NCBI GenBank assembly: GCA_030647655.1
Contig: JAUSJH010000018.1
Coordinates: forward strand, 1-62,484
Length of the DNA: 62,484 nucleotides
Direction: 5' to 3'
From: a bacterium
GTDB taxonomy: Bacteria; Patescibacteriota; Minisyncoccia; Phycocordibacterales; UBA2100
Numbering within the stretch: position 1 is the stretch's first letter; each line of letters begins with the position of its first letter. The translations under genes were made by a program, and so were the position numbers. Below the pieces are notes generated by a model, which saw only the letters and a program-made list of their open reading frames with translations, was not told the DNA's origin and did not search any database. Shown here one piece after another: positions 9,083-37,710 of this stretch.

Positions 9083-11308
9083 TTATTTGGCAACCTTTTC
9101 CGCCTCCTCTAATTTCACCGACAACAACTTTGATACGCCGTCCTGCCCCATGGTGACGCCATAAAGCTCGCCGGCGGCGGACATGGTCGCCCTATTGTGG
9201 GTGATGACGATGAGTTGTGATTTTGCCCCAAGTTCTTTTATCATGTCGGCGTAGCGCTTTGAGTTGGCTTCGTCGAGCGCGGCGTCGGTCTCATCAAGAA
9301 TTAAAAACGGTGGGGGATTCACTTGGCTCATAGAAAAGATGAGTGCGATGGATGTAAGCGCACGCTCGCCGCCCGAGAGCACTTCGAGCCCGCGGATTTT
9401 CTTTCTCGGGAGCGAGACATCAATAGAAAGACCGGCATATAACTCTTCTTCTTCATCAATCCCTTCTTCGCCATCGTCATCCTCCTCACTTTCCGTGTCA
9501 AGGACGGTCCTTGACACGCGGCGGCGGGGCTCCTCGACCTCGAGCTTGGCGTAACCACCCCCGAACAATTTATTGAAGAAGCCTTTGAGCGCTTCGTTGA
9601 TGTGCTTTAGCCCTTCGGTGAATCGAGCGTCAATGGTCTTTTCCAGCTCGGCAATGATGTCCTCGAGTTTCCCAGCCGAAGATTCGAGGTCGGCGAGTTC
9701 CCTCGCAAGAAATTCTTCGCGCTCTTTAGTCTGTTTGAATTCCCGCACGACGGCATCCCCGCTCCCCACCCCCGATTCCTCTATTTTTATCTTCAAGCGC
9801 TCGATATCGCGGCGGCGCTTATCTTGTCGTTTCCTATCTTCCTCGAGAAGTGCACCTTCCGGCACTCCTGCCTTCTCCCAACCATGCACCGCTTCTCCGA
9901 TGAGTGCGATGCCTTCCCGCACTTCTTCCTCGAATCGCGCGCGCAAAATCGCGAGTGCGGTGCGTGCGCTCGAAACGGCGCCGAGTTTGGCTTGCGCCTC
10001 ACGCACCTGTCCCTCCAATTCCACCAAGTCGCGCTCGGCAGTGAATCCTGCCTCGCGCGCTTCCGCAATTTTCTTGCGTAGTGTTTCCAGCTCACCCGCG
10101 AGCGCCGTTTCCTCTTTGCGCACGCGCTCAAGTGAATTCGCGAGCGAATTCACTTGCTGGCGCACTTCTTCGTTGGTCTCGGGTGCCGAGCCGGAAAGCC
10201 CGTCGACAAAAGCCTTGATGCGCTCACGAATCTGTCCGAGACGGCTTTTGAGCTTCACTATATCGGTCTCCCGCTCGGCTTCTGCGACAGTCAGAGAAAG
10301 CTCGCGCGCGAAGCTACGCACATGCGGCACGGGGACTATCTGCTCCACAGTGATGGTGTTGGCCTCGAGTGCTCCTTCGGCGCGTCCGAGCTCTCGGGTG
10401 AGTTTTTCACTCTCGCGACGCGCCTCCGATAGTTTCCCTTCCCGCTCCGACAACTTCTTTTGCAACTCTTGCAGGGCGCCTTGCCCCGCCGAAGCTTTTG
10501 CCGAACGGGTTTGCGAGACCGATTCGTTTAACTTTTTCAACTCGTGCACTTGTGCCTGTTCTTCTTGGCGAAGCCGTGCGTCTTCCTGCGTAATCCACGC
10601 GTTCTCGCGCGCGAGGTAGTCACTCAATTTCACAGCAAGCTCTTCCTTCATCTCACGGGCTTTCTCTATCTTTTCCACCTGCACGCGCAAGAAATTGATG
10701 TGCGGCGCGAGCTCGCGCCGGAGCGATTTTGTCTTATCGATATTATTCCCTGTCTCCTCGAGTTTGCGCTTGCTCTCCGCTTTCTTGTGCTGGTAGAGCT
10801 TCAGGCCGAGCGCGTCTTCCACCATCTCTCTGCGCTCGCGCGGGTGCGCATTCAATATCCTGTCCGCCTCACCTTGCGAAATTATCTGATAGCCCGAGCC
10901 GCCGATATTCGCTCCAGCGAGGAGGCGGGTGACGTCTTTGAGCCGCACCTGCGTGCCGTTCAACAAATACTCATTTTGCCCGTCGCGATAGACGACACGT
11001 TCCACCGTGACCTCCTTGAAGTCCAAATCCAAGAGGCGTTTTGAATTATCAAAAACCACTTTCACCCCCGCGCGATTCATGCGCGGCAAGGAAGGCGAGC
11101 CGCCCCAGATGAGGTCTTCGCCGCGCTTGCTTCTCATGGATTTCATCGATTGCTCGCCCAAGACGAAACGGAACGCCTCCGCGACATTGGACTTGCCCGA
11201 GCCATTCGGCCCGACAGCGGCGGTGATAGGGGACCCGAATACGAGCTCGGTCTTTTTGCCGAACGACTTGAATCCAGACAGTTCTATTGATTTCAAACTA
11301 AGAAACAT
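9083..11308 (-). CDS. smc: short SMC-family ATPase (no recognisable hinge)
   Basis: Walker A GPNGSGKSN, Q-loop IISQG, signature LSGGE, Walker B/D-loop LDETDAALD, VITH; central coiled coil; downstream of rnc. Confidence 0.88.
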   Translation of the reverse strand: MFLSLKSIELSGFKSFGKKTELVFGSPITAAVGPNGSGKSNVAEAFRFVLGEQSMKSMRSKRGEDLIWGGSPSLPRMNRAGVKVVFDNSKRLLDLDFKEVTVERVVYRDGQNEYLLNGTQVRLKDVTRLLAGANIGGSGYQIISQGEADRILNAHPRERREMVEDALGLKLYQHKKAESKRKLEETGNNIDKTKSLRRELAPHINFLRVQVEKIEKAREMKEELAVKLSDYLARENAWITQEDARLRQEEQAQVHELKKLNESVSQTRSAKASAGQGALQELQKKLSEREGKLSEARRESEKLTRELGRAEGALEANTITVEQIVPVPHVRSFARELSLTVAEAERETDIVKLKSRLGQIRERIKAFVDGLSGSAPETNEEVRQQVNSLANSLERVRKEETALAGELETLRKKIAEAREAGFTAERDLVELEGQVREAQAKLGAVSSARTALAILRARFEEEVREGIALIGEAVHGWEKAGVPEGALLEEDRKRQDKRRRDIERLKIKIEESGVGSGDAVVREFKQTKEREEFLARELADLESSAGKLEDIIAELEKTIDARFTEGLKHINEALKGFFNKLFGGGYAKLEVEEPRRRVSRTVLDTESEEDDDGEEGIDEEEELYAGLSIDVSLPRKKIRGLEVLSGGERALTSIALIFSMSQVNPPPFLILDETDAALDEANSKRYADMIKELGAKSQLIVITHNRATMSAAGELYGVTMGQDGVSKLLSVKLEEAEKVAK

Positions 11309-14652: not shown

Positions 14653-14703
14653 ATGTCGTCCGCCTTTGCTAAAGCTTCGGCGGGACAAGCGCGCGCACTA
14701 TGA
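14653..14703 (+). other. 16-codon leader ORF built from a palindromic repeat, stop overlapping dnaE start (ATGA)
   Basis: TATACT (14639-14644), 8 nt, ATG 14653, MSSAFAKASAGQARAL*, TGA 14701-14703 overlaps ATG 14700-14702. Confidence 0.5.
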
Positions 14704-23817: not shown

Positions 23818-23899
23818 ACCCTAAAGTGTACCACAACCCCAAATATCAAGGCAACGAAAACCCCAGCGAACCTTCGGTACACAAGTCAGACTTGTGTAT

Positions 23900-24505: not shown

Positions 24506-24533
24506 TGTACGGATTGTCTGAAACATACGTATG

Positions 24534-25253
24534 TTAGAGCGAGCCAATGAAATCCGCCTCGACGATGAAGCGTGCGCTCTTACCGGTCAGTGTGTCGCAC
24601 GTGACGAGCGTGAGCTTCGTCCCCTGTGTGGGCGAAAGGTCTATCGTCGTATCGCCCACATCAACGCTGCGTACGGAGGTTACGCTGTAGAGATAGTTTT
24701 TGCCTTTACCCTCGAGCGTAATCGTATCGCCCACGGAAAGTTCCGGCGCTCGATTGAAAGCCTTATACATTTGGTTTTTCACGACCGGCAAGTGCGACGA
24801 GTGGCCGAAGATGAGAACGTTCCCTTCCTCGCCGAGACGCGCGGAATCGACGTAGCGAATGGGCCCTTTCTTTAGATATTCATCCAGTACGGAAAGGTCG
24901 CGACTTTCGATATTTTGCACCGGCAAATCGAGGTCGATGGCCGAGATTTTGATGCGCTCGGGCAACGTCGTCTCTACAGGTGTCGCGGTTTTGGATGTGA
25001 CAATTTCTTCACCAAGTTCCGGCAGATCTGAGAGCGCAAGTGTCTCTGTTCTCACTCCGCCGTAAGCGGAGACCGGCTCGGTTCCACTTGTGGTGAGCGA
25101 TCCGCCAGCTGGCGGAGAACCATCTATGTAGTACGGTACGAAACCGATAGAATCCGCGACGGAGACCGCGCAGAAAAATACCATTACGACGGCGGCAAAA
25201 AACACCCGCTTCGGCGGTCTTTCGTGAACTTGATATTGAGGACGTGTACTCAT
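24534..25253 (-). CDS. sortase
   Basis: N-terminal TM, RIKISAIDLDLPV, GNVLIFGHSS (His), TLVTC (Cys), ARFIV (Arg) catalytic triad. Confidence 0.9.
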   Translation of the reverse strand: MSTRPQYQVHERPPKRVFFAAVVMVFFCAVSVADSIGFVPYYIDGSPPAGGSLTTSGTEPVSAYGGVRTETLALSDLPELGEEIVTSKTATPVETTLPERIKISAIDLDLPVQNIESRDLSVLDEYLKKGPIRYVDSARLGEEGNVLIFGHSSHLPVVKNQMYKAFNRAPELSVGDTITLEGKGKNYLYSVTSVRSVDVGDTTIDLSPTQGTKLTLVTCDTLTGKSARFIVEADFIGSL

Positions 25254-25363
25254 AGAGAGCCGCGATAGTACACTATAAATATACCTTTGTCAATCCCACT
25301 CTTTCGGAATAAATAATGGGCGGGATTGACAAAGAGCAAGATATATGTAAGTATACCGATAAT

Positions 25364-26320
25364 ATGGCAGAACAGGTGCACACAGAGACCCGCACAACCA
25401 CACACACGCAAGTAGAGCAGAGGCAGAGCATGCTTTCCAACGTCCTCGCGATTATCGGCTTCATCATTCTCATTGTCATCGTGCTCTGGGGTCTTTTCCA
25501 CATCGCCTCTCTTAGTCAGCCGTGGCTCTCTTCCCTCTTCAAGAAGGCAGCTCCTGCACTCACGGTTACCATTCCCTCAAACGCGATTTCTGGAGATTCC
25601 ATCACCGTAAGCTGGAAATATTCGACACCCGAGAAGGGTATGTACGCGTTTTTGTACCAGTGCAAAAATAATTTTCGTTTTGAAACAACGGGTAACGCCT
25701 CTGCGATTCCCTGCGGTGCGGCATATGCCATTCAAACGACAAGCAACACGGTGGGCGTTACGCCAACCCTCTCCGGCACGGCCTCTACGAGCGTCCCCGT
25801 TTCTGTCATCTTCATACCAAGCGCGACAAGCTCGAAGCAGGCACAGGGAACTGCAACAGTCGTCGTGCATCCGAAAGTTGTGACGATGACTCCGGTGGAG
25901 CCAGCACCCGTAACTCCTGCAAAACCGGTAACCCCGACGCCGGTCAACCGCGGCCCTGCCGATCTCTCCGTCAGCATTATCTCCGTCACGTCGGACGGTT
26001 CGGGCAACGCGGTCGCGACCTTTGATATCGGCAACGTCGGCGGGAACGCTTCGGGCTCGTACTACTTCACCGCACAGCTTCCGATGAACGGCGGCTACAC
26101 ATACACTTCTCCCGTCCAATACTCGCTTGCGCCCGGTGACCACATCGTAAACACCCTGCGCTTCGCGCAAGCAGTATCCGGAAACGTCTCCGTCGTTGTC
26201 GACCCGCAGAATATGGTGAGCGAGTCGAGCGAGAGCAACAATTACACCTCGCAATTTCTCAACACGCCCTACAACTACAACCAGCCGTACTATCCAAACC
26301 AGTACCCGTACGTGTACTAA
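25364..26320 (+). CDS. membrane-anchored CARDB-domain protein
   Basis: N-terminal TM; Pro/Thr linker; ADLSV...IGNVG...LAPG...VVVDPQNMVSESSESNN CARDB pattern; Tyr/Pro-rich tail. Confidence 0.8.
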   Translation: MAEQVHTETRTTTHTQVEQRQSMLSNVLAIIGFIILIVIVLWGLFHIASLSQPWLSSLFKKAAPALTVTIPSNAISGDSITVSWKYSTPEKGMYAFLYQCKNNFRFETTGNASAIPCGAAYAIQTTSNTVGVTPTLSGTASTSVPVSVIFIPSATSSKQAQGTATVVVHPKVVTMTPVEPAPVTPAKPVTPTPVNRGPADLSVSIISVTSDGSGNAVATFDIGNVGGNASGSYYFTAQLPMNGGYTYTSPVQYSLAPGDHIVNTLRFAQAVSGNVSVVVDPQNMVSESSESNNYTSQFLNTPYNYNQPYYPNQYPYVY

Positions 26321-26340
26321 ACTTAGTTAGATTGAGATAA

Positions 26341-26384
26341 CAAAAAGGCGCCCCACGTTTTGTCGAGGGGCGGCCTTTTGTTTT
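26341..26384. terminator. probable bidirectional terminator
   Basis: aaaaggcgcccc...ggggcggcctttt between convergent genes. Confidence 0.6.
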
Positions 26385-28500
26385 AGACGTCGAGTGTCGC
26401 CTCCCTCGCGTGGCTTTGAATGAATGACTTACGCGCGGGGACGTCGGTGCCCATGAGCATGTCGAAGACCATGTCGGCTTCCTGCGCGTCCTCGATGGCG
26501 ACCTGCTTCAATATGCGGCGTGCAGGGTCCATTGTCGTTTCCCACAATTCTTCAGAATTCATCTCGCCCAAGCCTTTGTAGCGTTGAACAGAGACTTTTG
26601 CGGTTTTCCCGACGCTCCGACCTTCATCGGAAGTCGGGACCCCGACTTCGACTTCGTCGAGCGTCGGGGCTTCCAGCGGCATATCCTTGCCCACGAGCCT
26701 GATGCGTTCCTCGTCGGAATATGCATAGTGAATTTCTTTTCCTTTGCGCACCTTAAAAAGCGGCGGCTGGGCGATGTAGAGATATCCGCCGTCTATTACC
26801 GGTCGGAAGTGGCGGTACATGAGCGTGAGGAGAAGTGTGCGAATGTGCGCGCCATCCACGTCGGCATCGGTCGCAATGATTATTTTGTGATAGCGCAACT
26901 TCGCGACATCGAAAATATCGCCTATCGCAGTCCCGAGCGCGACAACAAGATTACGTATCTGCTCGGAGGCGAGCATCTTGTCGAGGCGTGCGCGTTCGAT
27001 GTTGAGTATCTTGCCGCGCAGAGGAAGCACGGCCTGTATGCGACGGTCGCGGCCCATCTTTGCAGTGCCGCCGGCCGAATCACCTTCTACGATAAAGAGC
27101 TCCGATTCTTCCGCGCTTTTGCTCTGGCAATCGGCGAGTTTACCGGGAAGCGTCATGCCATCCAAGGCGCCCTTGCGCAAAATGCTGTCTTTGGCGGCTT
27201 TGGCGGCTTTGCGCGCCTTCATCGCGAGCGCTATTTTCCCCAGAATAGCGCGCGCGTCGTCGGGATGCCCTTCGAGGAACGTGCTGAATGCTTCGGCAAA
27301 GACGCTATCGGTCGCACCACGCGCCTCGACACTTCCGAGTTTCGACTTGGTTTGGCCTTCGAATTGCACTTCGCGCATTTTGACCGAAATAACCGCCGTA
27401 AGACCTTCCAAGACGTCGTCGCCGGTAAAGGTATCGCTCTCCTTGCCGCCATTCCCATTTTTTATCTGTGAATTCAAGGTGCGCGTAAGTGCGCCCTTGA
27501 ATCCTGTCACGTGCATGCCGCCTTCGGCGTTGTAGATGTTGTTGGCAAAAGCCGAAAGACGTGAGGTGATATCGTCTACATACTGCAGAGCGATTTCCAC
27601 CGAGACACCGTCTTGTTCTTTCTCGATGTGGAAAATATTCTTATGGATCGGTTCGAGATAGCGGTTTTGGAATGCGACAAGAGAGCGTAAGCCTCCTTCA
27701 AAATAGAACGATGTCGAGGGGGCATCGAGCCCAAGTTCACGCAAATAAAATACGTCTGCCCCGTTAGAGCGCGAAGTGTCTCTAATGGGGTCTTTGTCCA
27801 CCTTTCTGAAATCCAGGATAGAAATACGCAGTCCCCGAACAAGGTACGCCTGCTGGCGCATGTGCGCGACGATGGTATCGGAGTGGAGCTCGCGGTCGGG
27901 GAAAATCTTGGCATCGGCCTCGAAAGTAATTATAGTCCCGTGCAGTTTTGAAGAATCGATTTTCTTCGTTTTGCCGATAGGCTTGCCGCCGTCTTTGTAT
28001 TCCTGCATATATTTTCCCCCATCGCGATACACCTCTGCACGCACATGCGAGGAGAGTGCGTTGACGACCGAGACGCCTACGCCGTGCAATCCGCCCGATA
28101 TCTTGTATCCTTCGCCACCGAATTTCCCTCCGGCATGGAGCTTGGTCATTACCGTCTCGAGCGTTGAGACTTTTGTCTTGGGATGTATTTCCACAGGGAT
28201 ACCGCGACCGTTGTCGGCGACGCGTACGCGATTGTCCGGCAGAAGGGCTATCTCGATATCATCCGCAAACCCGCCCATCGCCTCGTCGCGCGAGTTGTCG
28301 AAGACTTCCCAGACGAGATGATGGAGTCCCGAGGTACCGGTCGTCCCGATATACATACCGGGACGGCGTCGCACCGCCTCCAACCCCTCGAGAACGGTAA
28401 TGTCGCTCGCTCCGTAAGAAGAAGTCCCTACTTTAGGGCTCTTTACCTTCCCTCCGGAGGAGGGTCCGCCTCCGGCGGATTTCGCCTTCTTTTTAGCCAT
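26383..28500 (-). CDS. gyrB: DNA gyrase subunit B
   Basis: VRRRPGMYIG, DNGRGIP, GGLHGVGVSVVNALS, EGDSAGG, PLRGKILN, DADVDGAHI, QRYKGLGEM. Confidence 0.95.
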   Translation of the reverse strand: MAKKKAKSAGGGPSSGGKVKSPKVGTSSYGASDITVLEGLEAVRRRPGMYIGTTGTSGLHHLVWEVFDNSRDEAMGGFADDIEIALLPDNRVRVADNGRGIPVEIHPKTKVSTLETVMTKLHAGGKFGGEGYKISGGLHGVGVSVVNALSSHVRAEVYRDGGKYMQEYKDGGKPIGKTKKIDSSKLHGTIITFEADAKIFPDRELHSDTIVAHMRQQAYLVRGLRISILDFRKVDKDPIRDTSRSNGADVFYLRELGLDAPSTSFYFEGGLRSLVAFQNRYLEPIHKNIFHIEKEQDGVSVEIALQYVDDITSRLSAFANNIYNAEGGMHVTGFKGALTRTLNSQIKNGNGGKESDTFTGDDVLEGLTAVISVKMREVQFEGQTKSKLGSVEARGATDSVFAEAFSTFLEGHPDDARAILGKIALAMKARKAAKAAKDSILRKGALDGMTLPGKLADCQSKSAEESELFIVEGDSAGGTAKMGRDRRIQAVLPLRGKILNIERARLDKMLASEQIRNLVVALGTAIGDIFDVAKLRYHKIIIATDADVDGAHIRTLLLTLMYRHFRPVIDGGYLYIAQPPLFKVRKGKEIHYAYSDEERIRLVGKDMPLEAPTLDEVEVGVPTSDEGRSVGKTAKVSVQRYKGLGEMNSEELWETTMDPARRILKQVAIEDAQEADMVFDMLMGTDVPARKSFIQSHAREATLDV
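26608..26646. repeat. palindromic element translated in frame within gyrB
   Basis: cccgacgctccgac...gtcgggaccccgac; encodes VGVPTSDEGRSVG; related copy at 54635-54659. Confidence 0.6.
28451..28479. repeat. palindromic element in gyrB N-terminal extension
   Basis: cctccggagg plus tccgcc-tcc-ggcgga; related tccgcc-agct-ggcgga at 25101-25116 in the sortase. Confidence 0.55.
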
Positions 28501-28609
28501 ATTTGATTGATTGAGTATAGCAAAAAACAAGCTGTTTGCCTAGACCCAAAAGGTGGGTATAGTGGGTATGGACCGACAATGAAGTCGGCTGAAAAAGTGA
28601 GGAAGCGCG

Positions 28610-28938
28610 ATGAAGATTCGTTGGTTTCTCGGTGGTTTGCTGACGGTCGTCGTGGGTGCCGGCATCCTAACGGCAAAAACATCGATGACGGAAGGCTCAT
28701 GCCATATCAAGATGCTTGCGCTTGCGCTTGATTGCCCATGGGTTGCAACATTGGTGCCCTTGGGACTGATCGATAGCGACGATAGCCTCGGCACAATGCA
28801 TAATGGAGATATCTTTATCTGTCGATGGCCGGCACTACACGTGTTCGGCATTGCGATGCCAACACGCAAAATCCACAGCACACGCAAAATCGACAGGCCG
28901 AAATGCATGCGGCCTCGGATACGCTGGCATCTCAATAG
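28610..28938 (+). pseudogene. possible secreted small protein gene, probably frameshifted
   Basis: GAGG SD and signal-peptide-like start at 28610; that frame reads through the terminator into pheT, while another frame stops at 28936-28938 just before the terminator. Confidence 0.3.
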
Positions 28939-28945
28939 CCAACTC

Positions 28946-28976
28946 GGCCCGGGCGTCTCGCCCGGGTCTTTTTCTT
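28946..28976 (+). terminator. intrinsic terminator
   Basis: ggcccgggc-gtctc-gcccgggtc + TTTTTCTT. Confidence 0.7.
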
Positions 28977-30768
28977 ATCTCACTTGCCAGCCTTTTTCTG
29001 CGACAGCGGCATTTACTTTTTCCATAATCAAATTTGCTTCCGCATCAGTCAACGTCTTTTCGAATGACTGAAAGACAAGACGGAATGCGAGCGATAATTT
29101 CTCCCCTTTTTCGAATGTGTCGAAAAGTTCGCTACGCACGAGAAGCTCCCCCGCTTGTGCGCGGATAACGTTCAGCACTTCAACAGGCCCCGTTCCTTGT
29201 GAACACCACAGGGCAATATCGCGCACTATGAATGGGTATTTTGAGAATGTTTTGTAGCGTTCAGTTTTTGAAATCGGCAAGTCGTCGTAGGCGGAAGCCG
29301 CGACAACACCGAGCGGTTCTTCCGAGATTATACCTCCCTCTTCTGCCGTACCGACCATCATCATTTCTTTATTATCCTTCCACACGGCGCCAACCTCAAA
29401 CAACTTTACTTTGTAAAGTTGAAGCAGGTCCTTATTGCGTGTATTTCTCTCAAGCGCGTCTTTCAGCCCATCGGTCAGATTCGCACGAAGGTACGGACGC
29501 ACGCCGTCTACTTTGTTTGCGATGACGCGCTCGCCTTTGTCGGCAAATACAGACGTGAATACTTCGGAATAACCTTCCGAAATAAGTTTTTCACGCATCT
29601 GCTCGGCGGCGTAAAAGTTCTTGTTGATTTCCGGCTTCTTCGGAAACGGTGATAACTCGGTTGTGGGGATTTTGTCGTAGCCCACGATGCGAGCGACCTC
29701 TTCTATCAGATCTTCGGGAATGACAAGGTCGAGCCGCTCGAAAGGTGGTGTAATGACAAAATCCCCGCCGCCTATTTCAAACGGCAAATCAAGCCGCTTG
29801 AACGCGTCTACAACATCTGATTCTGCAAGTTTGGTTCCAAGGACGGCGTTGATTTTCTGGAGCGATACAGATACGGTCCATTTCTCTTGCGGCTTCGGAT
29901 ACTCATCAACGAATCCCGCGACTGCCCCACTGGCAAGCTTCACGATGAGATCGGTAGCGGCCCGTAGACCGTATGCCGTGAGCTCGGGAGAGATGACTTG
30001 CTGAAAACGGTCCGATGCGTCGGTACGTAGATTTAAAGTCTGCGAAGCTTTCCTGATGGCCACGCCATCCCAATTCGCAGCTTCGAGAATAATGGCAGTC
30101 GTCGCTTCATCAATTCCTGTTGGCTTACCACCCTTGATACCGGCGATGCTCACCGTCTCGCCCGTATTCCCGTCGGCAATTGTGAGCATGGTGGGCGTGA
30201 GCGCGTATTCTTTGTCATCAAGCCCGAGCATCTTTTCCCCCTTTTTCGCCAAGCGCACATCAAGAGCCCGTACTCCTTTATTCTCGGTAAGTTTTGCCGC
30301 ATCGAAGGCGTGGAGCGGCTGACCGATGTTGAACATCACGTAGTTTGTTGCGTCCACGATGTTGTTGATGCTTTTCTGGCCGATGCTCTCAAGCGCCGTG
30401 CGCAGCCAATCGGGCGAAGCCCCTACTTTGACGCCTGTAATGTATGCCGCACTAAAGCGCGGGCAAAGCTGCGGATTTTCAATCGTCACTTCGAGTGCCT
30501 CAGTTTTTGGTTCCAGCTTGATGTCGGTTATGCCGTACGGATGCGGTACGAGCGGAAGATTCAATATCGCCGAGACCTCTTTCGCAATTCCGCGATACGA
30601 GAGACAGTCGCGCCCGCGATTTGGCGTTACCTTCACGTCGAGAACGATATCGCCTTCATGTCGTCCAATACTTTCTACCTCAAACGCGTGAAATGTTAGT
30701 GCCTCCGAAAGCCCTTCCGGCAGAGGTTTTTCAAAATATGTCTGGAGCCAGTTACGCGAGATTTTCAT
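28975..30768 (-). CDS. pheT: phenylalanine--tRNA ligase beta subunit, short form (no tRNA-binding OB insert)
   Basis: TPNRGRDCLS, INNIVDATNYVM.IGQPLHAFD, RLDLVIPEDLIEEVARIVGYDKIP, C-terminal FDX-ACB (SKYPFIVRDIA). Confidence 0.95.
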   Translation of the reverse strand: MKISRNWLQTYFEKPLPEGLSEALTFHAFEVESIGRHEGDIVLDVKVTPNRGRDCLSYRGIAKEVSAILNLPLVPHPYGITDIKLEPKTEALEVTIENPQLCPRFSAAYITGVKVGASPDWLRTALESIGQKSINNIVDATNYVMFNIGQPLHAFDAAKLTENKGVRALDVRLAKKGEKMLGLDDKEYALTPTMLTIADGNTGETVSIAGIKGGKPTGIDEATTAIILEAANWDGVAIRKASQTLNLRTDASDRFQQVISPELTAYGLRAATDLIVKLASGAVAGFVDEYPKPQEKWTVSVSLQKINAVLGTKLAESDVVDAFKRLDLPFEIGGGDFVITPPFERLDLVIPEDLIEEVARIVGYDKIPTTELSPFPKKPEINKNFYAAEQMREKLISEGYSEVFTSVFADKGERVIANKVDGVRPYLRANLTDGLKDALERNTRNKDLLQLYKVKLFEVGAVWKDNKEMMMVGTAEEGGIISEEPLGVVAASAYDDLPISKTERYKTFSKYPFIVRDIALWCSQGTGPVEVLNVIRAQAGELLVRSELFDTFEKGEKLSLAFRLVFQSFEKTLTDAEANLIMEKVNAAVAEKGWQVR

Positions 30769-30770
30769 AT

Positions 30771-31031
30771 TCAGCCCGTTAGAGATAGAAAACGCTTGAG
30801 ACGATTCTTTATGTACCGCTTCCCCATACCAGTTTTTAAATACTTCTCGCGCGTATATGCGTCAGACTGCTCCCTGCACGCCTCGTAGTACATCAGTTCG
30901 AACGGATGTCGTTTGGCCGTGGCAACCATTTGACCGCCGTTATGTTGTCTCAGGCGTTTTCGTAGATCGTTTGTACACCCGGTATACCATTTACCATCAA
31001 CTTTGCTTCGGAGTACGTAGGTGTAGTGCAT
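30771..31031 (-). CDS. GIY-YIG nuclease family protein
   Basis: YTYVLRS...WYTGCTNDLRKRLRQHN...YYEAC...AYTREKYLK. Confidence 0.92.
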   Translation of the reverse strand: MHYTYVLRSKVDGKWYTGCTNDLRKRLRQHNGGQMVATAKRHPFELMYYEACREQSDAYTREKYLKTGMGKRYIKNRLKRFLSLTG

Positions 31032-31050
31032 AAAGAATCTCTAACGGGCT
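30773..31050. mobile_element. GIY-YIG cassette bounded by perfect 14-bp inverted repeats, between pheS and pheT
   Basis: agcccgttagagat (30773-30786) / atctctaacgggct (31037-31050). Confidence 0.7.
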
Positions 31051-31786
31051 AAAACTGATTGATGAACCGCAAATCGGCGGAATGCATAAGACGGATGTCG
31101 TCGATGCCCCAACGCAGAAGCGCGAGACGGTCGAGCCCCATGCCGAAGGCAAAGCCCTGATACTTTTTCGGGTCGACGCCCGCGTTCTTGAGCACATCCG
31201 GATGCACCATGCCCGCACCCATCATTTCTATCCACCGGTCTTTCAGCTTTTCCGGAACATTCGCGCCAACGAGCCGCATATCCACTTCGACCGACGGCTC
31301 GGTGAATGGAAAGAAGCTCGGACGGAACCGTATCTCGACTGACGCGCCTTTAAACAACTCTTTGAGAAATCGTTCGAGCGTTCCTTTGAGATTTGCGAGT
31401 GTTACATCCTCACCCACGGCAAGCCCTTCTATCTGAAAAAATTCCGCTTCGTGCGTCATGTCGGTCGCCTCGTTGCGGAAGACTTTGCCTGGCACAATGA
31501 CACGGTACGGTGGCACAATGCCCTTCTTCATCTGCGTCTCCATGTAGCGCACCTGGACGGGAGAAGTGTGTGTGCGCAGTACGTAACCCGGCTCATCTTT
31601 GATGAAAAAAGTGTCCTGCATGTCGCGCGCGGGATGGTCCTTGGGGACATTGAGGGCGTCGAAATTGTGCCATTCGTCTTCGAGAAGCGGGCCTTCCGCG
31701 CAAGTAAAGCCCATGCGATAAAATATCTGATTCGCCTCGCGGATGAGGGATGAAATAGGGTGAATGTGCCCTCGTGTTTTCTCCAT
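31049..31786 (-). CDS. pheS: phenylalanine--tRNA ligase alpha subunit, short form (no N-terminal coiled-coil arm)
   Basis: GHIHP, NFDALNVPKDHPARDMQDTF, LRTHTSPVQ, RFRPSFFPFTEPS, GFAFGMGLDRL. Confidence 0.96.
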   Translation of the reverse strand: MEKTRGHIHPISSLIREANQIFYRMGFTCAEGPLLEDEWHNFDALNVPKDHPARDMQDTFFIKDEPGYVLRTHTSPVQVRYMETQMKKGIVPPYRVIVPGKVFRNEATDMTHEAEFFQIEGLAVGEDVTLANLKGTLERFLKELFKGASVEIRFRPSFFPFTEPSVEVDMRLVGANVPEKLKDRWIEMMGAGMVHPDVLKNAGVDPKKYQGFAFGMGLDRLALLRWGIDDIRLMHSADLRFINQF

Positions 31787-31793
31787 ACACGAC

Positions 31794-31900
31794 AGTATAC
31801 CCCATGAGATAATAATTCTAATTTTCCGAGAAAATCTCTCCGCAGCAATCACCTAGACAGTCGAAGATACTTTAAAACTGCTTATCTCACGGGGTATACT
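31794..31900. mobile_element. ~107-bp inverted-repeat-bounded element (copy B)
   Basis: agtataccccatgagataa (31794-31812) / ttatctcacggggtatact (31882-31900), 18/19 complementary. Confidence 0.65.
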
Positions 31901-32717
31901 AGAGAGAAATCTCGTAGAGCGCGCTGCCGTCCTTCACGATGAGATGCCCGTTGACGATGCGGAAGTCTGCACCGGCTCGCGGATACAGGGGCACAGTAAT
32001 CGCCGTCGGGCGGATATCCGCTTCGCCCAAGAACACGCCGCCCTCGATGGTAGCGTAGACGATGCCACCGCCGAAAAATGCCGCCGTGCGGGAGGTCTGT
32101 TTGCCGCGCTCGATCGGTATTTCGCGCACACAATATGAGGGCCGGCCGCAAAAATTGCTCGGCGGGGACGACTCTGCATCGATGCGAACATATACATCGC
32201 CATGCTCGACGTAAAGCGCGGCGCCTCGCGTACCCTCGGTGGTTGTCGCAACAGGTACATCAAAAGCCGAACGGTAAAGAAGCGCGGTCGGCGGCGTGAT
32301 AATAGCGGTCGAGGATGCCCCTGTATTCGTTCCTGTAAGCAGACGGATCGGGATGATTTCTTTGGGGACGAGAAGCGCGCGTACGTCGGTCACGAGCTGC
32401 TGCTCGACGACGAGCGTGCGGTACCACGGATAATCCCCCTCCCGCGATACATGGAGCGCGTAGGCGCCAGGGGTGAGATTGTCGAGATAGAATCCGCGAT
32501 TCAATATCCCGCTTGTCCCGATCTCCTCGCCGTTGAGCGAAACATGAGCATCAGAGTACGGCACCGAGATAAAAATGCCTCCGGTTTGCACGAACCCGAG
32601 TCCGCTTTTGAAACGATATCCGCCTGCATAGAAAAAGACGAAGGGGAGACAGAGAAAGAAAAGTGTTATGAACGCAAGAAGATAGATGCGGCGTTTGAGA
32701 CGTGAGAGCGGTTGCAT
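31899..32717 (-). CDS. PEGA-domain membrane protein
   Basis: N-terminal TM then TGGIFISVPYSDAHVSLNG...LTPGAYALHVSREGDYPW PEGA-like pattern. Confidence 0.75.
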   Translation of the reverse strand: MQPLSRLKRRIYLLAFITLFFLCLPFVFFYAGGYRFKSGLGFVQTGGIFISVPYSDAHVSLNGEEIGTSGILNRGFYLDNLTPGAYALHVSREGDYPWYRTLVVEQQLVTDVRALLVPKEIIPIRLLTGTNTGASSTAIITPPTALLYRSAFDVPVATTTEGTRGAALYVEHGDVYVRIDAESSPPSNFCGRPSYCVREIPIERGKQTSRTAAFFGGGIVYATIEGGVFLGEADIRPTAITVPLYPRAGADFRIVNGHLIVKDGSALYEISL

Positions 32718-32781
32718 AGAGGACAGGGTATCGCCACTAGCCACTAGTGTCTAGCGAAGAATCAAAGAAACTGATGAATTG

Positions 32782-34347
32782 TTATTTCCCCATTGGCTGA
32801 ACCATAGTGGCTAACTTTCTATGCTTCGGCGTCACCCAGAATCCGAGGTAACGACCTGTGAGGAGCCGTATTTGTGAGTCGAGTCCGGGTATAGAGCTGA
32901 AAATGACCATCGTCGCCGGCACTAGTGTCCACTGCAAAAGGAGCATGAGGCTCCGGAAGCGCCCGTACTCGAGCGGTCGCGCGGGCACTAAGTACATCGA
33001 GATCGCAGCAGAGAACACGAGCCCGAACATCGCGGCAGAAAGGAATCCTTTTGCGACAAGCGGAAGGCTGTACGAAAGCACTGTCGCATTGAATTTGTCG
33101 CCGCCGACCAAGAGCGGGAGCCAGCCGAGCGCAAAGAGGATAAGTGGATGCGTCACCAAGGACCAGAAACCCTCGAGCTGGACGGCCGCCGCCCGAAGTT
33201 TCTTGTAAAGTGGGATGCGCGGATTCTTGCAGAAAGCGAAAAGAATGTAGGGGATGTTTTCCGCGCCGTAGGTCCACCGGCGATGCTGAAGATAAATATT
33301 CTTGACTGTGCCTAAGAAGGTCGGGGCGACATTCGCATCCATCGAGACGGGATACGCCATTGGTATCACCTCATAGTCGCCGTCATTCCTAACGAAAAGA
33401 TTCCAAAAAATTCGCGAGTCTTCCGATACGATGTTGCGCTGCCAATAGCCCACCCTGTAGAGCTGGCTAAAGGGAATGGCATGCGAAGAAAAAGTCGCCA
33501 ATTTTTCCGGCCGCTCCTGTTGTATCATCTGCCAGAACGAGCTCGAATACGCGATGACCCGAGAAAGCATCCTCGCCTGCCAGATGTTGTTGTTATAGAG
33601 CGGGACAGGTTGGAGCGATACACGCTCCGGATTCTCGGCAGTAAGAAAATGCCACGTAAGGCAGGCAAAGTAGTGCGGGTAGACTACGGTGTCGATATCG
33701 AACGCCGAGACGATGGTGTGTTCATAGGGAATGCTACGCGCATCAAGTATCCGCTGTCGGGCTTCTTCCGCCGCATATGACATGTTGGAGCCCTTACCTC
33801 GAAGCTCTCCTTCTACTCCGTCGGGGTGGACCGTCACGATACAATCGAGGAAATATGAGCCGAATTCGCCCGCGACGCGCTCCGCGATCTGAAGCTGTGC
33901 CGCTCCACCGCGCTCCTCAACAGCGATTACAACAGCTATACGGTGCGGGTCCCCTATTGCGCCCAGCAATCCGCGCACGCTCTCGGCGACCACCTCATAG
34001 CCTTCCATGTAGAACGGAAATATGACGAGATGCACGATGTGCTCATGCCGCAAGTCCTTGAGACGCTCGCTCCAATCTACGCGCAGGTTGTGTTGGATGC
34101 GTTTAAAATTGTGACGAAGGTGGATGGAAAGATACGTGGTCTTGAAAAGCCAGTAAACAGAAAAAGCGATTGTGAGATACGCCGCCCACGCAGGCTTCAT
34201 GAATGAGAAGGCAACAAAGAGGATGAGGGTCCCTATCGAAAGCAGCCCTGGCAACATTTCGAAGAAGCGGTAGAGGACACGGTCGAGGCCGGTTAGATCG
34301 CTCGCGCGACCGACGTGTAAATACCAATACGGGTCTTTGTGTTCCAT
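32782..34347 (-). CDS. processive membrane glycosyltransferase family 2
   Basis: KGSN, FDIDT (DxD), SED, QHRRW (QxxRW), TM helices at both ends; true start MEHKDPYW (upstream ORF extension is the tRNA). Confidence 0.85.
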   Translation of the reverse strand: MEHKDPYWYLHVGRASDLTGLDRVLYRFFEMLPGLLSIGTLILFVAFSFMKPAWAAYLTIAFSVYWLFKTTYLSIHLRHNFKRIQHNLRVDWSERLKDLRHEHIVHLVIFPFYMEGYEVVAESVRGLLGAIGDPHRIAVVIAVEERGGAAQLQIAERVAGEFGSYFLDCIVTVHPDGVEGELRGKGSNMSYAAEEARQRILDARSIPYEHTIVSAFDIDTVVYPHYFACLTWHFLTAENPERVSLQPVPLYNNNIWQARMLSRVIAYSSSFWQMIQQERPEKLATFSSHAIPFSQLYRVGYWQRNIVSEDSRIFWNLFVRNDGDYEVIPMAYPVSMDANVAPTFLGTVKNIYLQHRRWTYGAENIPYILFAFCKNPRIPLYKKLRAAAVQLEGFWSLVTHPLILFALGWLPLLVGGDKFNATVLSYSLPLVAKGFLSAAMFGLVFSAAISMYLVPARPLEYGRFRSLMLLLQWTLVPATMVIFSSIPGLDSQIRLLTGRYLGFWVTPKHRKLATMVQPMGK

Positions 34348-34358
34348 AGGTGAGCTTG

Positions 34359-34431
34359 AGCCGCCTCCCAGACTCGAACTGGGGACCTTCTCTTTACAAA
34401 AGAGTTGCTCTACCAACTGAGCTAAGGCGGC
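34359..34431 (-). tRNA. tRNA-Thr(TGT)
   Basis: GCCGCCT/AGGCGGC acceptor, GCTC-AGTTGGTA-GAGC D-arm, TTTGTAA anticodon loop, CCCAG-TTCGAGT-CTGGG T-arm; CCA not encoded. Confidence 0.95.
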
Positions 34432-34433
34432 GT

Positions 34434-34844
34434 CTAGATATTGTGCCCGTTGTCAGTTGTTGTATCAAGTCCGTTACCATTCTTATGCTCCGCGACTTTC
34501 TTCAAGAATTCGGAGCGCGTGTCGCGTTTCTCGAAGCGGTGCTTGTAGGACATAAGGTCAGCGAGCTGGTGCGCATGCCGCTCGGCAAAACGCGCTACTG
34601 CCGCGAGCCCGAGCGCGGCTTCGTGTATCGTGATGCGCGAGAGGCGCGCGGCCTCTGGCGGCAGTTTCTCAAGATCGACACGCAAGGCCGTGAGAAGCGT
34701 CTTCAAGAGAATCGCATGGGCATCGAGTTTGCCTCGTATGCCGGGCGCAAGTACGCGCCCGTGCCTCATTTCCCAGTTCTTAAGTAGTAAAAGAAGCACG
34801 ATACTTACGAGAGAGACCACGAAGAGTATCGCTGAAAAAGTCAT
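34434..34844 (-). CDS. hypothetical single-pass membrane protein
   Basis: N-terminal TM then helical basic domain; fills the tsf-tRNA gap. Confidence 0.7.
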   Translation of the reverse strand: MTFSAILFVVSLVSIVLLLLLKNWEMRHGRVLAPGIRGKLDAHAILLKTLLTALRVDLEKLPPEAARLSRITIHEAALGLAAVARFAERHAHQLADLMSYKHRFEKRDTRSEFLKKVAEHKNGNGLDTTTDNGHNI

Positions 34845-34847
34845 ATT

Positions 34848-35432
34848 CTATTTCACGGAGAGGCGTTCGAAACGCGCAACCTCTATTTTCTCGCCGAATT
34901 TTTGCACTGCGGAATCAATAAGTTGCTGGATAGTAATGCTCGCATCTTTGACGTATGGCTGTTCGAGAAGGACACGCTCTCCCAAATAACTCCCGACTTT
35001 GCCTTCGATGGCTCTTGCGCGTGAGGCCTCCGGCACCTTTGCCGCTTCTGCCGCAAAGACTTCGCGGGCGGCTTTGAGATCACTTTCCTTCACATCGTGG
35101 CGCGAAATAAATTGCGGTCTCATCGCCGCAACGTGCATGGCGATATCGTATGCAAGTTTGGAAAATTCCTCATTTTTTGAGACAAAATCAGTCTCACACA
35201 TGAGCACGACGGACCCGACGACGGAGCCGCCGGCATGCGTGTATGCGGATGCGACCCCCGCACCCAAGGTTCGATCGGCCTTCTTGCCAGCGATGGTCGA
35301 GCTTTGCTTGCGCAATATTATTTTTGCCCTTTCGGTGTCACCACCAGCCTCTTCGAGAGCCTTCTTGCATTGCATGATGGACACACCGGTCTCGTCCCGC
35401 AATGCTTTGACCATGTCAGTTGAAATTTCCAT
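34848..35432 (-). CDS. tsf: elongation factor Ts (short form)
   Basis: VKALRDETGVSIMQCKKALEEAGGD, CETDFV, LLEQPYVKD. Confidence 0.95.
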   Translation of the reverse strand: MEISTDMVKALRDETGVSIMQCKKALEEAGGDTERAKIILRKQSSTIAGKKADRTLGAGVASAYTHAGGSVVGSVVLMCETDFVSKNEEFSKLAYDIAMHVAAMRPQFISRHDVKESDLKAAREVFAAEAAKVPEASRARAIEGKVGSYLGERVLLEQPYVKDASITIQQLIDSAVQKFGEKIEVARFERLSVK

Positions 35433-35435
35433 ACG

Positions 35436-35498
35436 GTAAGTATCAGGTATTGCGTAATAAGTATCAAGCCAGTGCCTGATACCTGTGTGCCTTACTTA
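35436..35498. repeat. inverted array of degenerate 7-mers (second locus)
   Basis: tatcagg-tattgcg-taataag-tatcaag then cctgata-cctgtgt-gccttac. Confidence 0.55.
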
Positions 35499-36211
35499 TT
35501 CGCAGGTTGAACCTTCTCGACTGTCGCGACCTTTTTCCCCTCCGCATACGCCTCCGCAAGCAGGTTGGTGACGAGTGCGATAGAGCGGACGGATGTGTCG
35601 TTGCCGGGAATTGGATGCTGAACGAGAGAGAAATCGCAATCCGAGCTCGAGAGTCCGACCACGGGAATGCTGAGCTGGTTGGCTTCCTGCACGGCAGTAT
35701 CCTCGTGCCGCGTATCGATGATAAAGAGTGCCGCGGGAAGCTCTGCCATTTTTACCAGCCCGCCGAAGCGACCCAAAAGCTCCGTAATCTCGCGGTCGAT
35801 CATGAGACGTTCGCGTTTTGTGTACTTTTCCAACTCCCCACTTTCGCGCTCGCTCATCAATTTTTGCAGACGGTCGATGCGCTTGCGAATGTTCTTGAAA
35901 TTCGTCAGCGTACCTCCTATCCAGCGGCCCGCGACGTACGGTGCGCCCACTCGCTCTGCCGCCTCTTTCACAATACCTACCGCCTCGTGCTTGCCGCTAA
36001 CGAAGAGGACTTGTTTGCCTTTCCCGGAAATAGAAGCCACAAATGCGCGCGCCGCCTCGAGGCGCCTTTCTGTCTCTTCGAGATCGAATATGTCTGTGCG
36101 ATCCTTTGTACCGAAGATGTATGTAGCGGCACTCGGGTGTCGGCGCGCCCGTGCGTAGCCGAAATGTGCTCCTGCTTCAAATAGCGTTTGGATATCGGTC
36201 GTTGCGGCCAT
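35492..36211 (-). CDS. rpsB: 30S ribosomal protein S2
   Basis: LFEAGAHFG, RWIGGTLTNF, AVQEANQLSIPVVGL..SDCD, PIPGND. Confidence 0.97.
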   Translation of the reverse strand: MAATTDIQTLFEAGAHFGYARARRHPSAATYIFGTKDRTDIFDLEETERRLEAARAFVASISGKGKQVLFVSGKHEAVGIVKEAAERVGAPYVAGRWIGGTLTNFKNIRKRIDRLQKLMSERESGELEKYTKRERLMIDREITELLGRFGGLVKMAELPAALFIIDTRHEDTAVQEANQLSIPVVGLSSSDCDFSLVQHPIPGNDTSVRSIALVTNLLAEAYAEGKKVATVEKVQPANK

Positions 36212-36232
36212 ATTTCGAGGATACTAACAAAA

Positions 36233-37219
36233 TTAGTCGTCCGTGGCAACCGGCTCGCCCTCTTCGGCCTTCGAGAGGGATTTGATAATAGTGCCGATGG
36301 AGCCCGCCATTATCTTTGGCACATTGGACCATGATTCCTTGATGCGATGGTCGGTCACGCGGTCCTGCGGGAAATTGTAGGTGCGTATCTTTTCAGAGCG
36401 ATCTCCGGTACCCACTTGCGCTTTTCTATCAGACGCGCGTGCACGCGCTTCGCGCTCATCTTGTTCCTGTTGTAGCCTGCTCGTGAGCAATTTCATGGCT
36501 TTCTCTTTGTTTTGGGCCTGACTTCTCTCGGACGTGCATTTTACGTCCATGCCTGTCGGTTTGTGGATAATACGGACCGCTGTTTCCACTTTGTTTACAT
36601 TTTGCCCGCCTGCGCCGCCAGAACGCGACGTTTCTATCTCCAGATCTGCAGGATTTATTTCTATCTTCGTGCGCTTATAGATGGGAAGTATCGCCACCGA
36701 TGCTGTCGAAGTGTGTATGCGACCAGCCTTTTCAGTAGCCGGCACGCGCTGCACACGATGCACTCCCGTTTCAAATTGCAACTCGCGATATGCGTTCTCG
36801 CCCTTTATCTCGAATTGCGCTTCCTTCAAACCGCCGAGAGCCGCGCGCGATTCATCTAGCGATTTGGCTTGCCAGCCGCGCGATTCCGCGTAACGCAAAT
36901 ACATGTTCGCAAGCTCTTCTGCGAAAAGTGATGCCTCCTCGCCGCCGACCCCCGCACGCACCTCGACGACGACCTCATTGGGCCATTCGCGCTCGTTATC
37001 GGAGCCAACGATACTCTCTATCTGCTTCAGTAAGGTATCTTTCTGGGCCTCAATCTCGTTCAATTCTTTTTCGGCAAGTTCTTTCATCGCGGGATCAACT
37101 TCGATGAGTTCCTGTGCGTCTTTTTCCGCCTTTGAAAGGCGTTGCCATTCGACAACAAGAAAAGAAACACGATGGTCTTTCGCGTAATCCTCGGGCTTTA
37201 TGATTGGGGTCTCTGTCAT
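36233..37219 (-). CDS. prfA: peptide chain release factor 1
   Basis: [12 protein letters not shown] (PxT), [37 protein letters not shown]. Confidence 0.95.
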
Positions 37220-37303
37220 ACGAAAATTATAGTCGCTTCTTGCCGCAACACCAACTCGCGCATCATGAAAGCGCGAATTGGTGCTGGGCTGCGACCAACA
37301 AAG

Positions 37304-37645
37304 TTACTTCTCCGATTTACGAGATGCTTTCGGTTGAGATGTCTTTTTCGATTTTGCTGCGGATGCTCTGGTCTTGAATTTCTCCACGCGTCCTGCGGTA
37401 TCAATTGTCTTGGCGGTTCCTGTATAAAAAGGATGCGACGCACTTGAAATTTCGACTTGAAATACAGGATATTGCTTGCCGATTTCCCCTAAGCCCTTCT
37501 GGCCTGGCGAGCCGTCTTCGTCGGCTTTAGCCCACTTATCGGTCTTAGTAGTCTCCACTGTGGAACCAATGAGAAAACGCTTCCCGCTCGTGGAATCCTC
37601 GAATATTACCTGCCTATAGTTTGCCGGATGAATGTCCTTTTTCAT
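37304..37645 (-). CDS. rpmE: 50S ribosomal protein L31 (type B, Cys-less) with internal insertion
   Basis: [17 protein letters not shown]...[13 protein letters not shown]...GRVEKF. Confidence 0.93.
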
Positions 37646-37652
37646 GCTTTGC

Positions 37653-37710
37653 CCGTCCGAAGCCTTCTTTGACCTTCGTAGCTTTAGCGAAGTAGGTTGG
37701 CGAAGGAGGG
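37653..37710. repeat. palindromic repeat element upstream of rpmE
   Basis: ccttcgtagctttagcgaagtagg core; shares the GCTAAAGC core with 14659-14685 and with the L31 insertion. Confidence 0.55.

Follow-up and report, generated by a model that had tools for sequence, protein, structure and literature searches.

Short hairpin-forming repeats read in frame in GyrB and other proteins of a Kaiserbacteria-like bacterium and its relatives

Short palindromic DNA elements can be found in frame within gyrB and other genes of a 62.5-kb contig (62,484 nt, analysed as a whole and hereafter called the window) from a Kaiserbacteria-like bacterium (Parcubacteria, candidate phyla radiation, CPR) sampled in a groundwater metagenome; the window has 54.5% G+C and is ~92% coding. 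These elements probably belong to several families of very short, GC-rich, hairpin-forming dispersed repeats, akin to repetitive extragenic palindromes (REPs) and Rickettsia palindromic elements (RPEs), that would be common in Kaiserbacteria and other CPR/Patescibacteria. The families are distributed patchily at non-orthologous sites, protein inserts coincide with palindromes, one reading frame is favored, the repeat signal is carried by the DNA and the stems show compensatory changes; transposition itself, and an enzyme responsible for it, we infer. The elements are predominantly intragenic and apparently undescribed in CPR bacteria, and a literature search found no paper on in-frame palindromic elements in CPR/Parcubacteria. 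The census of repeats was based on the window and 80 syntenic loci of relatives fetched with GyrB (1.4 Mb including the window; loci are designated L001 and so on), and also drew on at least 120 metagenome loci and a few loci fetched by protein identity. A preliminary description of this DNA had proposed at least three palindrome families lying between genes as well as inside those of GyrB, a sortase and the ribosomal protein L31. The three gene identities are borne out (PF04203 for the sortase, 24534-25253, minus strand; PF01197 for L31, 37304-37645, minus strand), and all the motifs can be found where that description had located them, some being merely part of a larger element.

Taken alone, the short inverted repeats of the window are weak evidence. 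Each hexamer arm occurs 27-33 times in the 62 kb window, and perfect hairpins with stems of 6, 7, and 8 bp number 144, 41, and 10, as against 139, 36, and 9 in dinucleotide shuffles. The hexamer counts given in the preliminary description are in themselves no evidence, because window-only statistics for stems of 6-8 bp are at chance. The 9-mer GCTAAAGCT is likewise not over-represented by itself (9 observed vs 9.3 expected). These figures agree with the proposal that the repeats are a by-product of chance and codon bias, namely the short GC-rich inverted repeats of any 54% GC genome, a proposal that can be given hardly any probability in view of what longer strings display. Hairpins with stems of at least 9 bp are in excess in the window (16 vs ~3 in dinucleotide shuffles). 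Across 1.4 Mb of related loci there are 8 occurrences of the sortase 16-mer TCCGCCAGCTGGCGGA vs 0.001 expected (Markov-1), 5 of GTCGGGGTCCCGAC, the center of the GyrB linker element, vs 0.011, and 8 of each of two further palindromes with a window copy, AAGGACGGTCCTT and CAAGTCAGACTTG, vs 0.04, so that exact 13-16-mers exceed the Markov expectation 200- to 8000-fold, i.e., by two to four orders of magnitude. The codon-usage control likewise speaks against codon bias. Among genes called in the 81 sequences, 15 of 31 SAxGG peptides are coded by exactly TCCGCC...GGCGGA (0.11 predicted from codon usage) and six of seven PPAGG peptides by CCGCCAGCTGGCGG (expected fraction 0.005), and because of these controls the repeat signal can be placed at the DNA level and not at the peptide level. 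In gyrB, hairpins with stems of at least 7 bp reach 5.05/kb in alignment columns filled by <30% of species vs 0.73/kb elsewhere, a palindrome density in lineage-specific insert columns about seven times that of the remaining columns, and the window elements that fold better than shuffles do so with z-scores from -2.7 to -5.4. The coincidence of inserts with palindromes, and the conservation of metagenome copies at positions left free by the search pattern (see below), are further points against chance. Chance is refuted where families A and B or the sortase palindrome are concerned, and would be possible only for the likeness between an insert in the L31 coding sequence and the L31 leader hairpin. 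Chance frequency as an objection to the preliminary description is thereby divided: it applies to hexamers and 6-8 bp stems in the window, but not to 13-16-mers in relatives.

Family A is a 30-nt double hairpin. Its window copy (28450..28479, minus strand; TCCGCC-GGA-GGCGGA followed by CCCTCC-TCC-GGAGGG) consists of two abutting hairpins, TCCGCCGGAGGCGGA and CCCTCCTCCGGAGGG, has a DNA fold with z = -2.7 and gives in frame the SAGGGPSSGG peptide of the GyrB N-terminal tail (gyrB coding sequence 26383..28500, minus strand, hosting the copies of both families A and B). The preliminary description had united this element with the sortase palindrome; the repeats are real, but the single palindrome (16 nt) and the double hairpin (30 nt) represent separate families. 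The nearest relatives, L001-L003, have neither family A DNA nor its peptide at the GyrB N-terminus. L007 has, in its own GyrB N-terminal tail, a 33-nt stretch identical to that spanning the window element. Variants can be found in the same tail in L012, where the gene upstream of gyrB also holds a variant twice, in a mid-protein Gly/Asn-rich loop of GyrB (L003, L005, L036, and L053) and in the GyrB C-terminal linker (L023 and L015). Across lineages, three distinct GyrB sites are occupied by family A. In L012 and L023, 3-4 family A copies are present within 12-22 kb. Pairing is retained in L023, where CCCGCC/GGCGGG is a double compensatory change with respect to CCCTCC/GGAGGG of the window. All strict family A doublets in Kaiserbacteria loci (9/9) are within coding sequence.

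Metagenomes scanned with a pattern of 20 specified bases yielded at least 120 stretches carrying family A. Among the matches listed, 126 copies have the consensus TTT-TCCGCC-AAA-GGCGGA-TCCGCC-TYT-GGCGGA-AAA, in which the positions left free by the pattern are conserved too. Again among these matches, 70 of the 126 copies lie in open reading frames (ORFs) of at least 200 aa, and 55 of these 70 are in the frame that reads SAxGGSAxGG, while the Arg-rich frame is nearly restricted to short ORFs. Ten long host ORFs were scanned and correspond to SecA, FtsK, UvrB, RecG, DnaE, GyrB, MutL, UvrC, and DnaK, the tenth matching an LptC-related domain alone. Contigs of the source sample break, with a depth spike, at the family A copy.

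Family B is longer, ~63 nt, and its window copy (~26607..26669, minus strand; CCCCGAC..GTCGGGG followed by TCCCGAC, an inner hairpin and GTCGGGA) is centered on GTCGGGGTCCCGAC and read in frame as ~PTLDEVEVGVPTSDEGRSVG in the linker of GyrB that precedes QRYKGLGEM. Its DNA fold has two hairpins (z = -4.2; 0/200 shuffles as good). While a variable acidic linker is present at this site in all 80 GyrB orthologues, the peptide G-V-G-V-P-T-S...S-V-G-K occurs only in the window, L003, L011, and L016, coded each time by family B DNA, and the sisters L001 and L002 have neither the peptide nor the DNA. The inner hairpin varies yet always pairs (TCCGA/TCGGA, TCCGGC/GCCGGA, or CTCTC/GAGAG, the last in L201). 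The GyrB C-terminal insert that the preliminary description had put in its second family represents a real repeat family, which recurs intergenically in simpler copies (L011:4227 and L023:19696) and in the S16 tail of another Kaiserbacterium species (L201), read there as PTPEGVGVPTSPLESVGKK. A partial intergenic copy in the window (54635..54665; CGACGC..GGTCGGGGTCCCGACC) lies in a 275-nt gap between genes 52135-54552 and 54828-56924 and is a member by sequence likeness to other copies, the fold of 54628-54670 being no better than that of shuffles (z = -0.2). Peptides read from in-frame elements include SAGGGPSSGG and GVPTSDEGRSVG. A possible objection, that orthologues might have the same peptide without the palindrome, does not apply, orthologues without the DNA palindrome being also without the peptide.

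In the sortase gene, a perfect 16-nt palindrome (25101..25116, minus strand; TCCGCCAGCTGGCGGA) codes (S)PPAGG in a variable linker after the membrane helix, and the repeat reported there in the preliminary description is real. L015 has the same palindrome DNA at the same place and the L037 sortase a compensatory variant, TTCGCC..GGCGAA, while the majority of sortase orthologues have neither. The 14-nt core CCGCCAGCTGGCGG gives PPAGG in frame six times, spread over five loci (the window, L015, L028 twice, L030, and L036). A further palindrome lies in the SMC gene (9494..9518, minus strand; 12-bp stem, core CAAGGACGGTCCTTG, fold z = -5.4) and codes SRTVLD in a variable acidic linker. Its core also builds GyrB inserts in L018, L009, and L011, together with an intergenic double hairpin at L018:4897; the L018 GyrB insert, RTVLKGSQGPSLPQ (-40 kcal/mol), is made of the AAGGAC(C/G)GTCCTT family, of which 9494-9518 is the window copy. 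Many lineage-specific GyrB inserts, among all those listed, are strong hairpins. A solo palindrome at 23878..23898 belongs to the family CACAAGTC(A/T)GACTTGTG, found in relatives on either side of Y1 transposase genes. Recurrence at non-orthologous sites is seen for family A (30 nt), family B (~63 nt), the sortase 16-mer, and the families AAGGAC and CAAGTC. Two other kinds of palindrome were observed. At 59189-59215, a perfect palindrome with a 12-bp stem, GCGGCGGCGCGC-TCT-GCGCGCCGCCGC, codes GGAQSAPP in a 1217-residue surface protein and has no other copy in the loci. The gyrB C-terminal linkers of L005-L009 contain tandem heptamer repeats (e.g., GGTAGCY facing GCTACAA, CTGTCAG facing CTGAAAG), which are the two arms of long inverted repeats, in frame.

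Family C consists of hairpins in which GCTAAAGCT mostly serves as the loop of GC stems that co-vary, with CAAG(R)AAG after it, as at window positions 14659-14692, in the L31 leader, in the L012 GyrB N-terminus (AAAKASAGKK), in the GyrB C-linkers of L046 and L043 and in L118. One window copy (14659..14692, plus strand; TCCGCC-TTT-GCTAAAGCT-TC-GGCGGG-ACAAGC) is in the gap upstream of dnaE and is a member by sequence likeness, the fold of 14655-14692 being no better than that of shuffles (z = -0.06). Another (37666..37698, minus strand; CTTCG-CTAAAGCTA-CGAAG) is a 33-nt insert within the apical part of the L31 leader hairpin; by alignment, the window and L005 have it, whereas the leaders of L019 and L028, homologous in other respects, do not. 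A weak copy (8225..8250, minus strand; CCCGA-CTCT-GCTAAAGCT-ACTA-CGGG) codes PDSAKATTG in the C-terminal tail of S16; over 60 nt its likeness to the L31 leader is 72%, the fold does not reach significance, and the stretch of ~10 residues is common only to P0125 among 23 S16 homologues. Family C is the least secure family, because its window copies fold no better than shuffles. In the leader hairpin itself (37646-37712, minus strand), GGACGGG, the ribosome-binding site, is paired to a CCCTCC lying upstream. L005, L019, and L028 conserve this hairpin, which may be an autoregulatory leader. An Rfam scan had tRNA-Thr as its sole match and placed no known RNA family on the elements or on the L31 leader.

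The preliminary description had included in this third family an insert in the L31 coding sequence; the GCTAAAGCT-loop hairpins do form a family, but the insert is neither palindromic nor repeated. It is a genuine lineage-specific insertion of 45 nt and 15 residues (37487..37531, minus strand) in a loop of the protein, shared with L001 only among 35 L31 sequences. Its fold is no better than that of shuffles (z = -0.7), a search of the window and 1.4 Mb of related loci gave no other copy, and its likeness to the leader hairpin, a 14/16 match, is weak, since 130 of 2000 shuffles do as well when the 300 nt upstream are considered; as a palindromic element it was rejected on these three grounds. 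Also rejected was a third GCTTTAGC at 37814, since on the other strand it merely codes VALA, part of a small secreted protein's signal peptide.

The inserts fall in permissive places. When GyrB is compared with the mycobacterial structures 8s7k and 6gau, the alignment begins at residue 33 (of the ORF from an upstream TTG), which places the family A peptide in a tail not belonging to the ATPase domain; just before the conserved QRYKGLGEM, the family B peptide falls opposite gaps in these structures. The sortase copy is in a membrane-proximal linker and the S16 copy in a C-terminal tail. Structure mapping, which the preliminary description had recommended, is in agreement with its view of GyrB. 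Its alignment with orthologues has a divided outcome, since inserts match palindromes in GyrB and the sortase but not in L31; correspondingly, the addition of peptide loops in frame by palindromes holds for GyrB (two elements) and the sortase, not for L31, and the S16 tail is a further in-frame case beyond those it had listed. On a GyrB tree built without the insert columns, the carriers are scattered, the minimum number of changes being 3 for the N-terminal family A site, 4 for the mid-protein one, 2 for the C-linker one, 4 for family B and 3 for AAGGAC. For the N-terminal and mid-protein sites of family A and for family B, this is about the number of carriers.

The typical unit comprises either a single hairpin or a pair that abut and have identical stems (arm-loop-arm'-arm-loop-arm'); such a unit is a nested palindrome as a whole because each half is itself palindromic. 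The canonical unit has a length divisible by three (30 nt in family A) and contains no stop codon in any frame. New copies would arise through a copy-and-insert process on hairpin or cruciform DNA, as proposed for REPs mobilized by Y1 (HUH) transposases, the REP-associated tyrosine transposases (RAYTs), and would then pass between lineages through recombination. Most landing sites would be genes because the genomes are ~92% coding, and selection would spare only the copies in disordered tails and linkers, in the frame giving a Gly/Ser/Ala/Pro-rich peptide. The survivors would be seen as lineage-specific loops, in GyrB, the sortase and S16 here and in SecA, DnaK, DnaE, FtsK, UvrB/C, RecG, and MutL elsewhere. 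As for the enzyme, the candidates would be a RAYT-type Y1 transposase, found only in relatives and with another family, or a small GIY-YIG nuclease, found in the window and having no sequence link to the elements.

The recombination step has some bearing on how the distribution is to be read. Over gyrB residues ~581-660, the window DNA is 83-87% identical to L003 and 50-67% identical to the sisters L001 and L002, and the 3' part of the gene (26383-27300) is mosaic, residues ~400-660 being nearer to L003 than to L001/L002 (87% vs ~50% in the linker), which indicates recombination between lineages. After allowing for a transfer between the window and L003, several independent gains, or transfers, would still be needed for each trait. 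The mosaic is also one of the arguments for regarding the repeats as functional cis-elements under selection, spread by natural transformation and homologous recombination and not by transposition. They might be binding sites for gyrase or a nucleoid protein, DNA-uptake signals, or RNA hairpins affecting mRNA stability or translation; the REPs of other bacteria are bound by gyrase, and uptake sequences there build up in coding frames that permit them. Such an origin seems unlikely, even if several observations would suit it: segments of gyrB do recombine, the exact DNA is kept (synonymous positions and stem pairing included) while its flanks diverge to ~50% identity, family B is at the same GyrB linker site in three lineages, and a family C copy lies within the regulatory L31 leader hairpin. 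Block insertions of 30-63 nt at non-homologous sites, however, are beyond recombination alone, and the existence of several unrelated families alike in architecture alone is a better fit to selfish elements. The low density in the window, one or two per 62 kb, is unlike that of uptake signals, and degenerate copies exist.

Two other perfect palindromes of the SMC gene require a different explanation. That at 10129-10156 has a 13-bp stem and changes QQVEALAKSLE to QQVNSLANSLE at constant length, and that at 10703-10720 (18 nt, 9-bp stem) is in the invariant peptide RRELAP. For this reason, two of the three SMC palindromes were rejected as inserts. They lend some support to an origin in place, in which hairpin-templated mutation (template switching, quasi-palindrome correction) in low-constraint DNA coding for Gly, Ser, Ala, and Pro would create palindromes whose likeness is convergent. 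The natural complementarity of NCC and GGN codons would favor such a process, and repeated inverted duplication would yield the nested palindrome architecture. As a general account it is nevertheless quite improbable: convergence cannot give identical strings of 30-33 nt, loops and TTT/AAA flanks included, in unrelated genes and genomes, and neither the block insertions seen in alignments nor the Y1 transposase genes flanked by one family would be explained.

Dispersed, REP/RPE-like repeats remain the best explanation, and several points weigh against it. No Y1/HUH transposase domain (PF01797) is found among the 59 window ORFs of at least 70 aa obtained by a greedy scan, and no transposase was identified for families A, B, or C. 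Target-site duplications were not seen, no flanking direct repeat being evident at the aligned insert boundaries. No insertion event was caught, the Logan contigs being fragmentary, derived from many related organisms and uninformative on empty vs filled sites; the source sample also holds an L023-like gyrB. The window holds only one or two copies per family, and its copies at 54635, 14659, and 8225 are degenerate, with folds that are not significant. The window and L003 share their family B copy via a recombined gene segment and not via separate insertions, so that some of the seemingly independent occurrences represent transfers. Finally, a second, in-place process would also form or sharpen some palindromes, because 10129-10156 and 10703-10720 are not inserts.

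The preliminary description had called for a cognate HUH transposase. There is none in the window, but Y1 genes in L020 and L029 are flanked by a different palindrome family. These genes (421-1122 in L020 and 761-1492 in L029) code proteins of 233-243 residues with a Y1_Tnp domain (PF01797, E ~ 9e-9) and, as regions 376-1170 and 752-1540, sit between an SLT-domain gene and L31. They have a double CACAAGTC(A/T)GACTTGTG hairpin upstream and a single one downstream, which is a REPtron-like arrangement, and the window has a solo copy of this CACAAGTCWGACTTGTG hairpin at 23878-23898. Other Y1 genes (L076 and L166) are flanked by other hairpins, and none of the Y1 genes examined is flanked by families A, B, or C.

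The second candidate is the GIY-YIG nuclease gene located between pheS and pheT (30773..31050, minus strand; 86 residues; PF01541, E = 2.7e-17) and bounded by 14-bp inverted repeats, AGCCCGTTAGAGAT. The protein family is ~70% identical across phyla, and the ~280-bp cassette is bounded by the same 13-16 bp inverted repeats in 11/11 loci examined, some of them pheS/pheT junctions of Kaiserbacteria, others different sites in several other phyla. The cassette looks like a miniature mobile nuclease gene. In most relatives the pheS/pheT junction is empty (4-8 nt). Across this junction (window 30769-31048; L001-L080), many Kaiserbacteria hold differing small inserted genes of 300-900 nt, and it appears to be an insertion hotspot. 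No sequence link between the cassette and families A-C was seen, and its fused-end palindrome, CCGTTAGAGAT..ATCTCTAACGG, has no solo copy in the 1.4 Mb of loci and the window; because no such palindrome was found, the cassette is not shown as the parent of families A-C. Relatives of the 86-residue protein can nonetheless adjoin such palindromes and tRNA genes. In L152, a family A copy is ~30 nt upstream of a more distant GIY-YIG gene; in L128 (5980-6300), the 5' half of a tRNA is followed by the 20-nt palindrome CCTGCCTGCCGGCAGGCAGG and then by a GIY-YIG gene; in L075 (15300-16210), tRNA-Thr-like copies interrupted by TCCCGA..TCGGGA double hairpins adjoin a GIY-YIG gene. It could be speculated, although the odds are against it, that families A-C are an undescribed class of minimal mobile DNA in CPR, made of nested-palindrome units from 30 nt, adapted to essential genes by their stop-free sequence and multiple-of-three length, and mobilized not by a RAYT but by a structure-specific nuclease recognizing cruciforms, for which the 86-residue GIY-YIG protein would be the candidate. 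If this were true, core CPR proteins would have a steady source of new surface loops.

Other genes and a further repeat were noted in the window. Toxin-antitoxin genes comprise a ParE toxin and a HicA/HicB pair (23306-23587 and 58324-58818). An 18-nt periodic repeat with at least 12 copies extends over 23222-24259, in and around the ORF 23900-24547 (minus strand); this ORF resembles a left-handed beta-helix domain weakly, with a score below threshold, and the repeat may code a hexapeptide-repeat protein.

CPR/Patescibacteria have tiny, gene-dense genomes thought to be poor in mobile DNA, and palindromes that colonize the genes of gyrase, SecA, DnaK, and the replicative polymerase would be a recurrent source of lineage-specific peptide loops in essential proteins. 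Such repeats complicate annotation, alignment, assembly and phylogenetics based on marker genes such as gyrB. They also provide a tractable system in which to study how REP-like elements move and why in-frame hairpin DNA is tolerated, and the GIY-YIG cassette bounded by inverted repeats is possibly a new miniature mobile gene that is directly testable.

Among known systems, the GIY-YIG homing endonucleases, free-standing or intron-borne, resemble the cassette in being small, horizontally spread nuclease genes, as is the window gene, patchily present in a tiny gap between the essential pheS and pheT. They differ in that the window protein is a catalytic domain only, without a DNA-binding domain (a score of 22.9 bits with the model for group I intron endonucleases, below its cut-off of 56), and that its gene is bounded by 13-16 bp inverted repeats. 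[quoted passage not shown] Like the elements described here, they are non-autonomous, short, palindromic and dispersed, whereas here the whole unit is palindromic and no parent IS and no target-site duplication were seen. In-frame fusion with host ORFs is common to both, being known for some MITEs (PMC10969869).

REPs are palindromes of 20-40 nt, usually tagged with GTAG or CGTC, often paired and sometimes intragenic, notably in genes for replication and repair (Di Nocera et al., 2013; PMC3733652), and those with GTAG are thought to be mobilized by RAYTs (PMC3733652). The present repeats are similar in that they are short GC-rich palindromes with many dispersed copies, belong to several families per genome and are patchy between relatives; their units are often paired and able to fold into larger structures, some are inside replication or repair genes, and one family with a window copy has a REPtron-like arrangement in L020 and L029. 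However, families A, B, and C are without a terminal GTAG or CGTC tag: the ends of family A are TCCGCC and GGCGGA with TTT and AAA flanks, family B has CGTC inside its 3' arm (CGTCGGGA) and not at the unit end, and family C has GTAG solely on the complementary strand of its loop. While REPs are mostly extragenic, the elements here are mostly within coding sequence (by the count of 70 in 126 for ORFs >= 200 aa among the metagenome matches listed), and the unit is a tandem pair of identical hairpins, whereas that of REPINs (REP doublets forming hairpins) is an inverted pair of asymmetric REPs. Moreover, the window lacks a RAYT, and no RAYT with flanking hairpins of family A, B, or C was found.

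RPEs, in the account of Ogata et al. (2000) as relayed in a later paper (PMC10969869), are palindromic elements of ~150 bp that are in frame in many Rickettsia genes and code a conserved peptide of some 30-50 residues; their ends carry CGTC (PMC3733652). The parallel drawn in the preliminary description applies to in-frame insertion in housekeeping genes, but element length and the conserved peptide module differ. The elements here are 16-63 nt long and code 5-21 residues, i.e., they are three to ten times shorter, the host phylum is different and the ends of families A and C are without CGTC. Their length (16-63 nt vs ~150 bp) sets them apart, and they are probably not members of the RPE families. 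What is shared with RPEs is the presence in frame in unrelated housekeeping genes of a reduced genome (GyrB, the sortase and S16 in the window, SecA, FtsK, UvrB, UvrC, RecG, DnaE, MutL, and DnaK elsewhere, translation being inferred from intact frames), with an extra peptide at fold-compatible sites and with intergenic copies too. The palindromes of these CPR bacteria would therefore link the RPEs of Rickettsia and the intragenic REPs of proteobacteria to a third, very different lineage.

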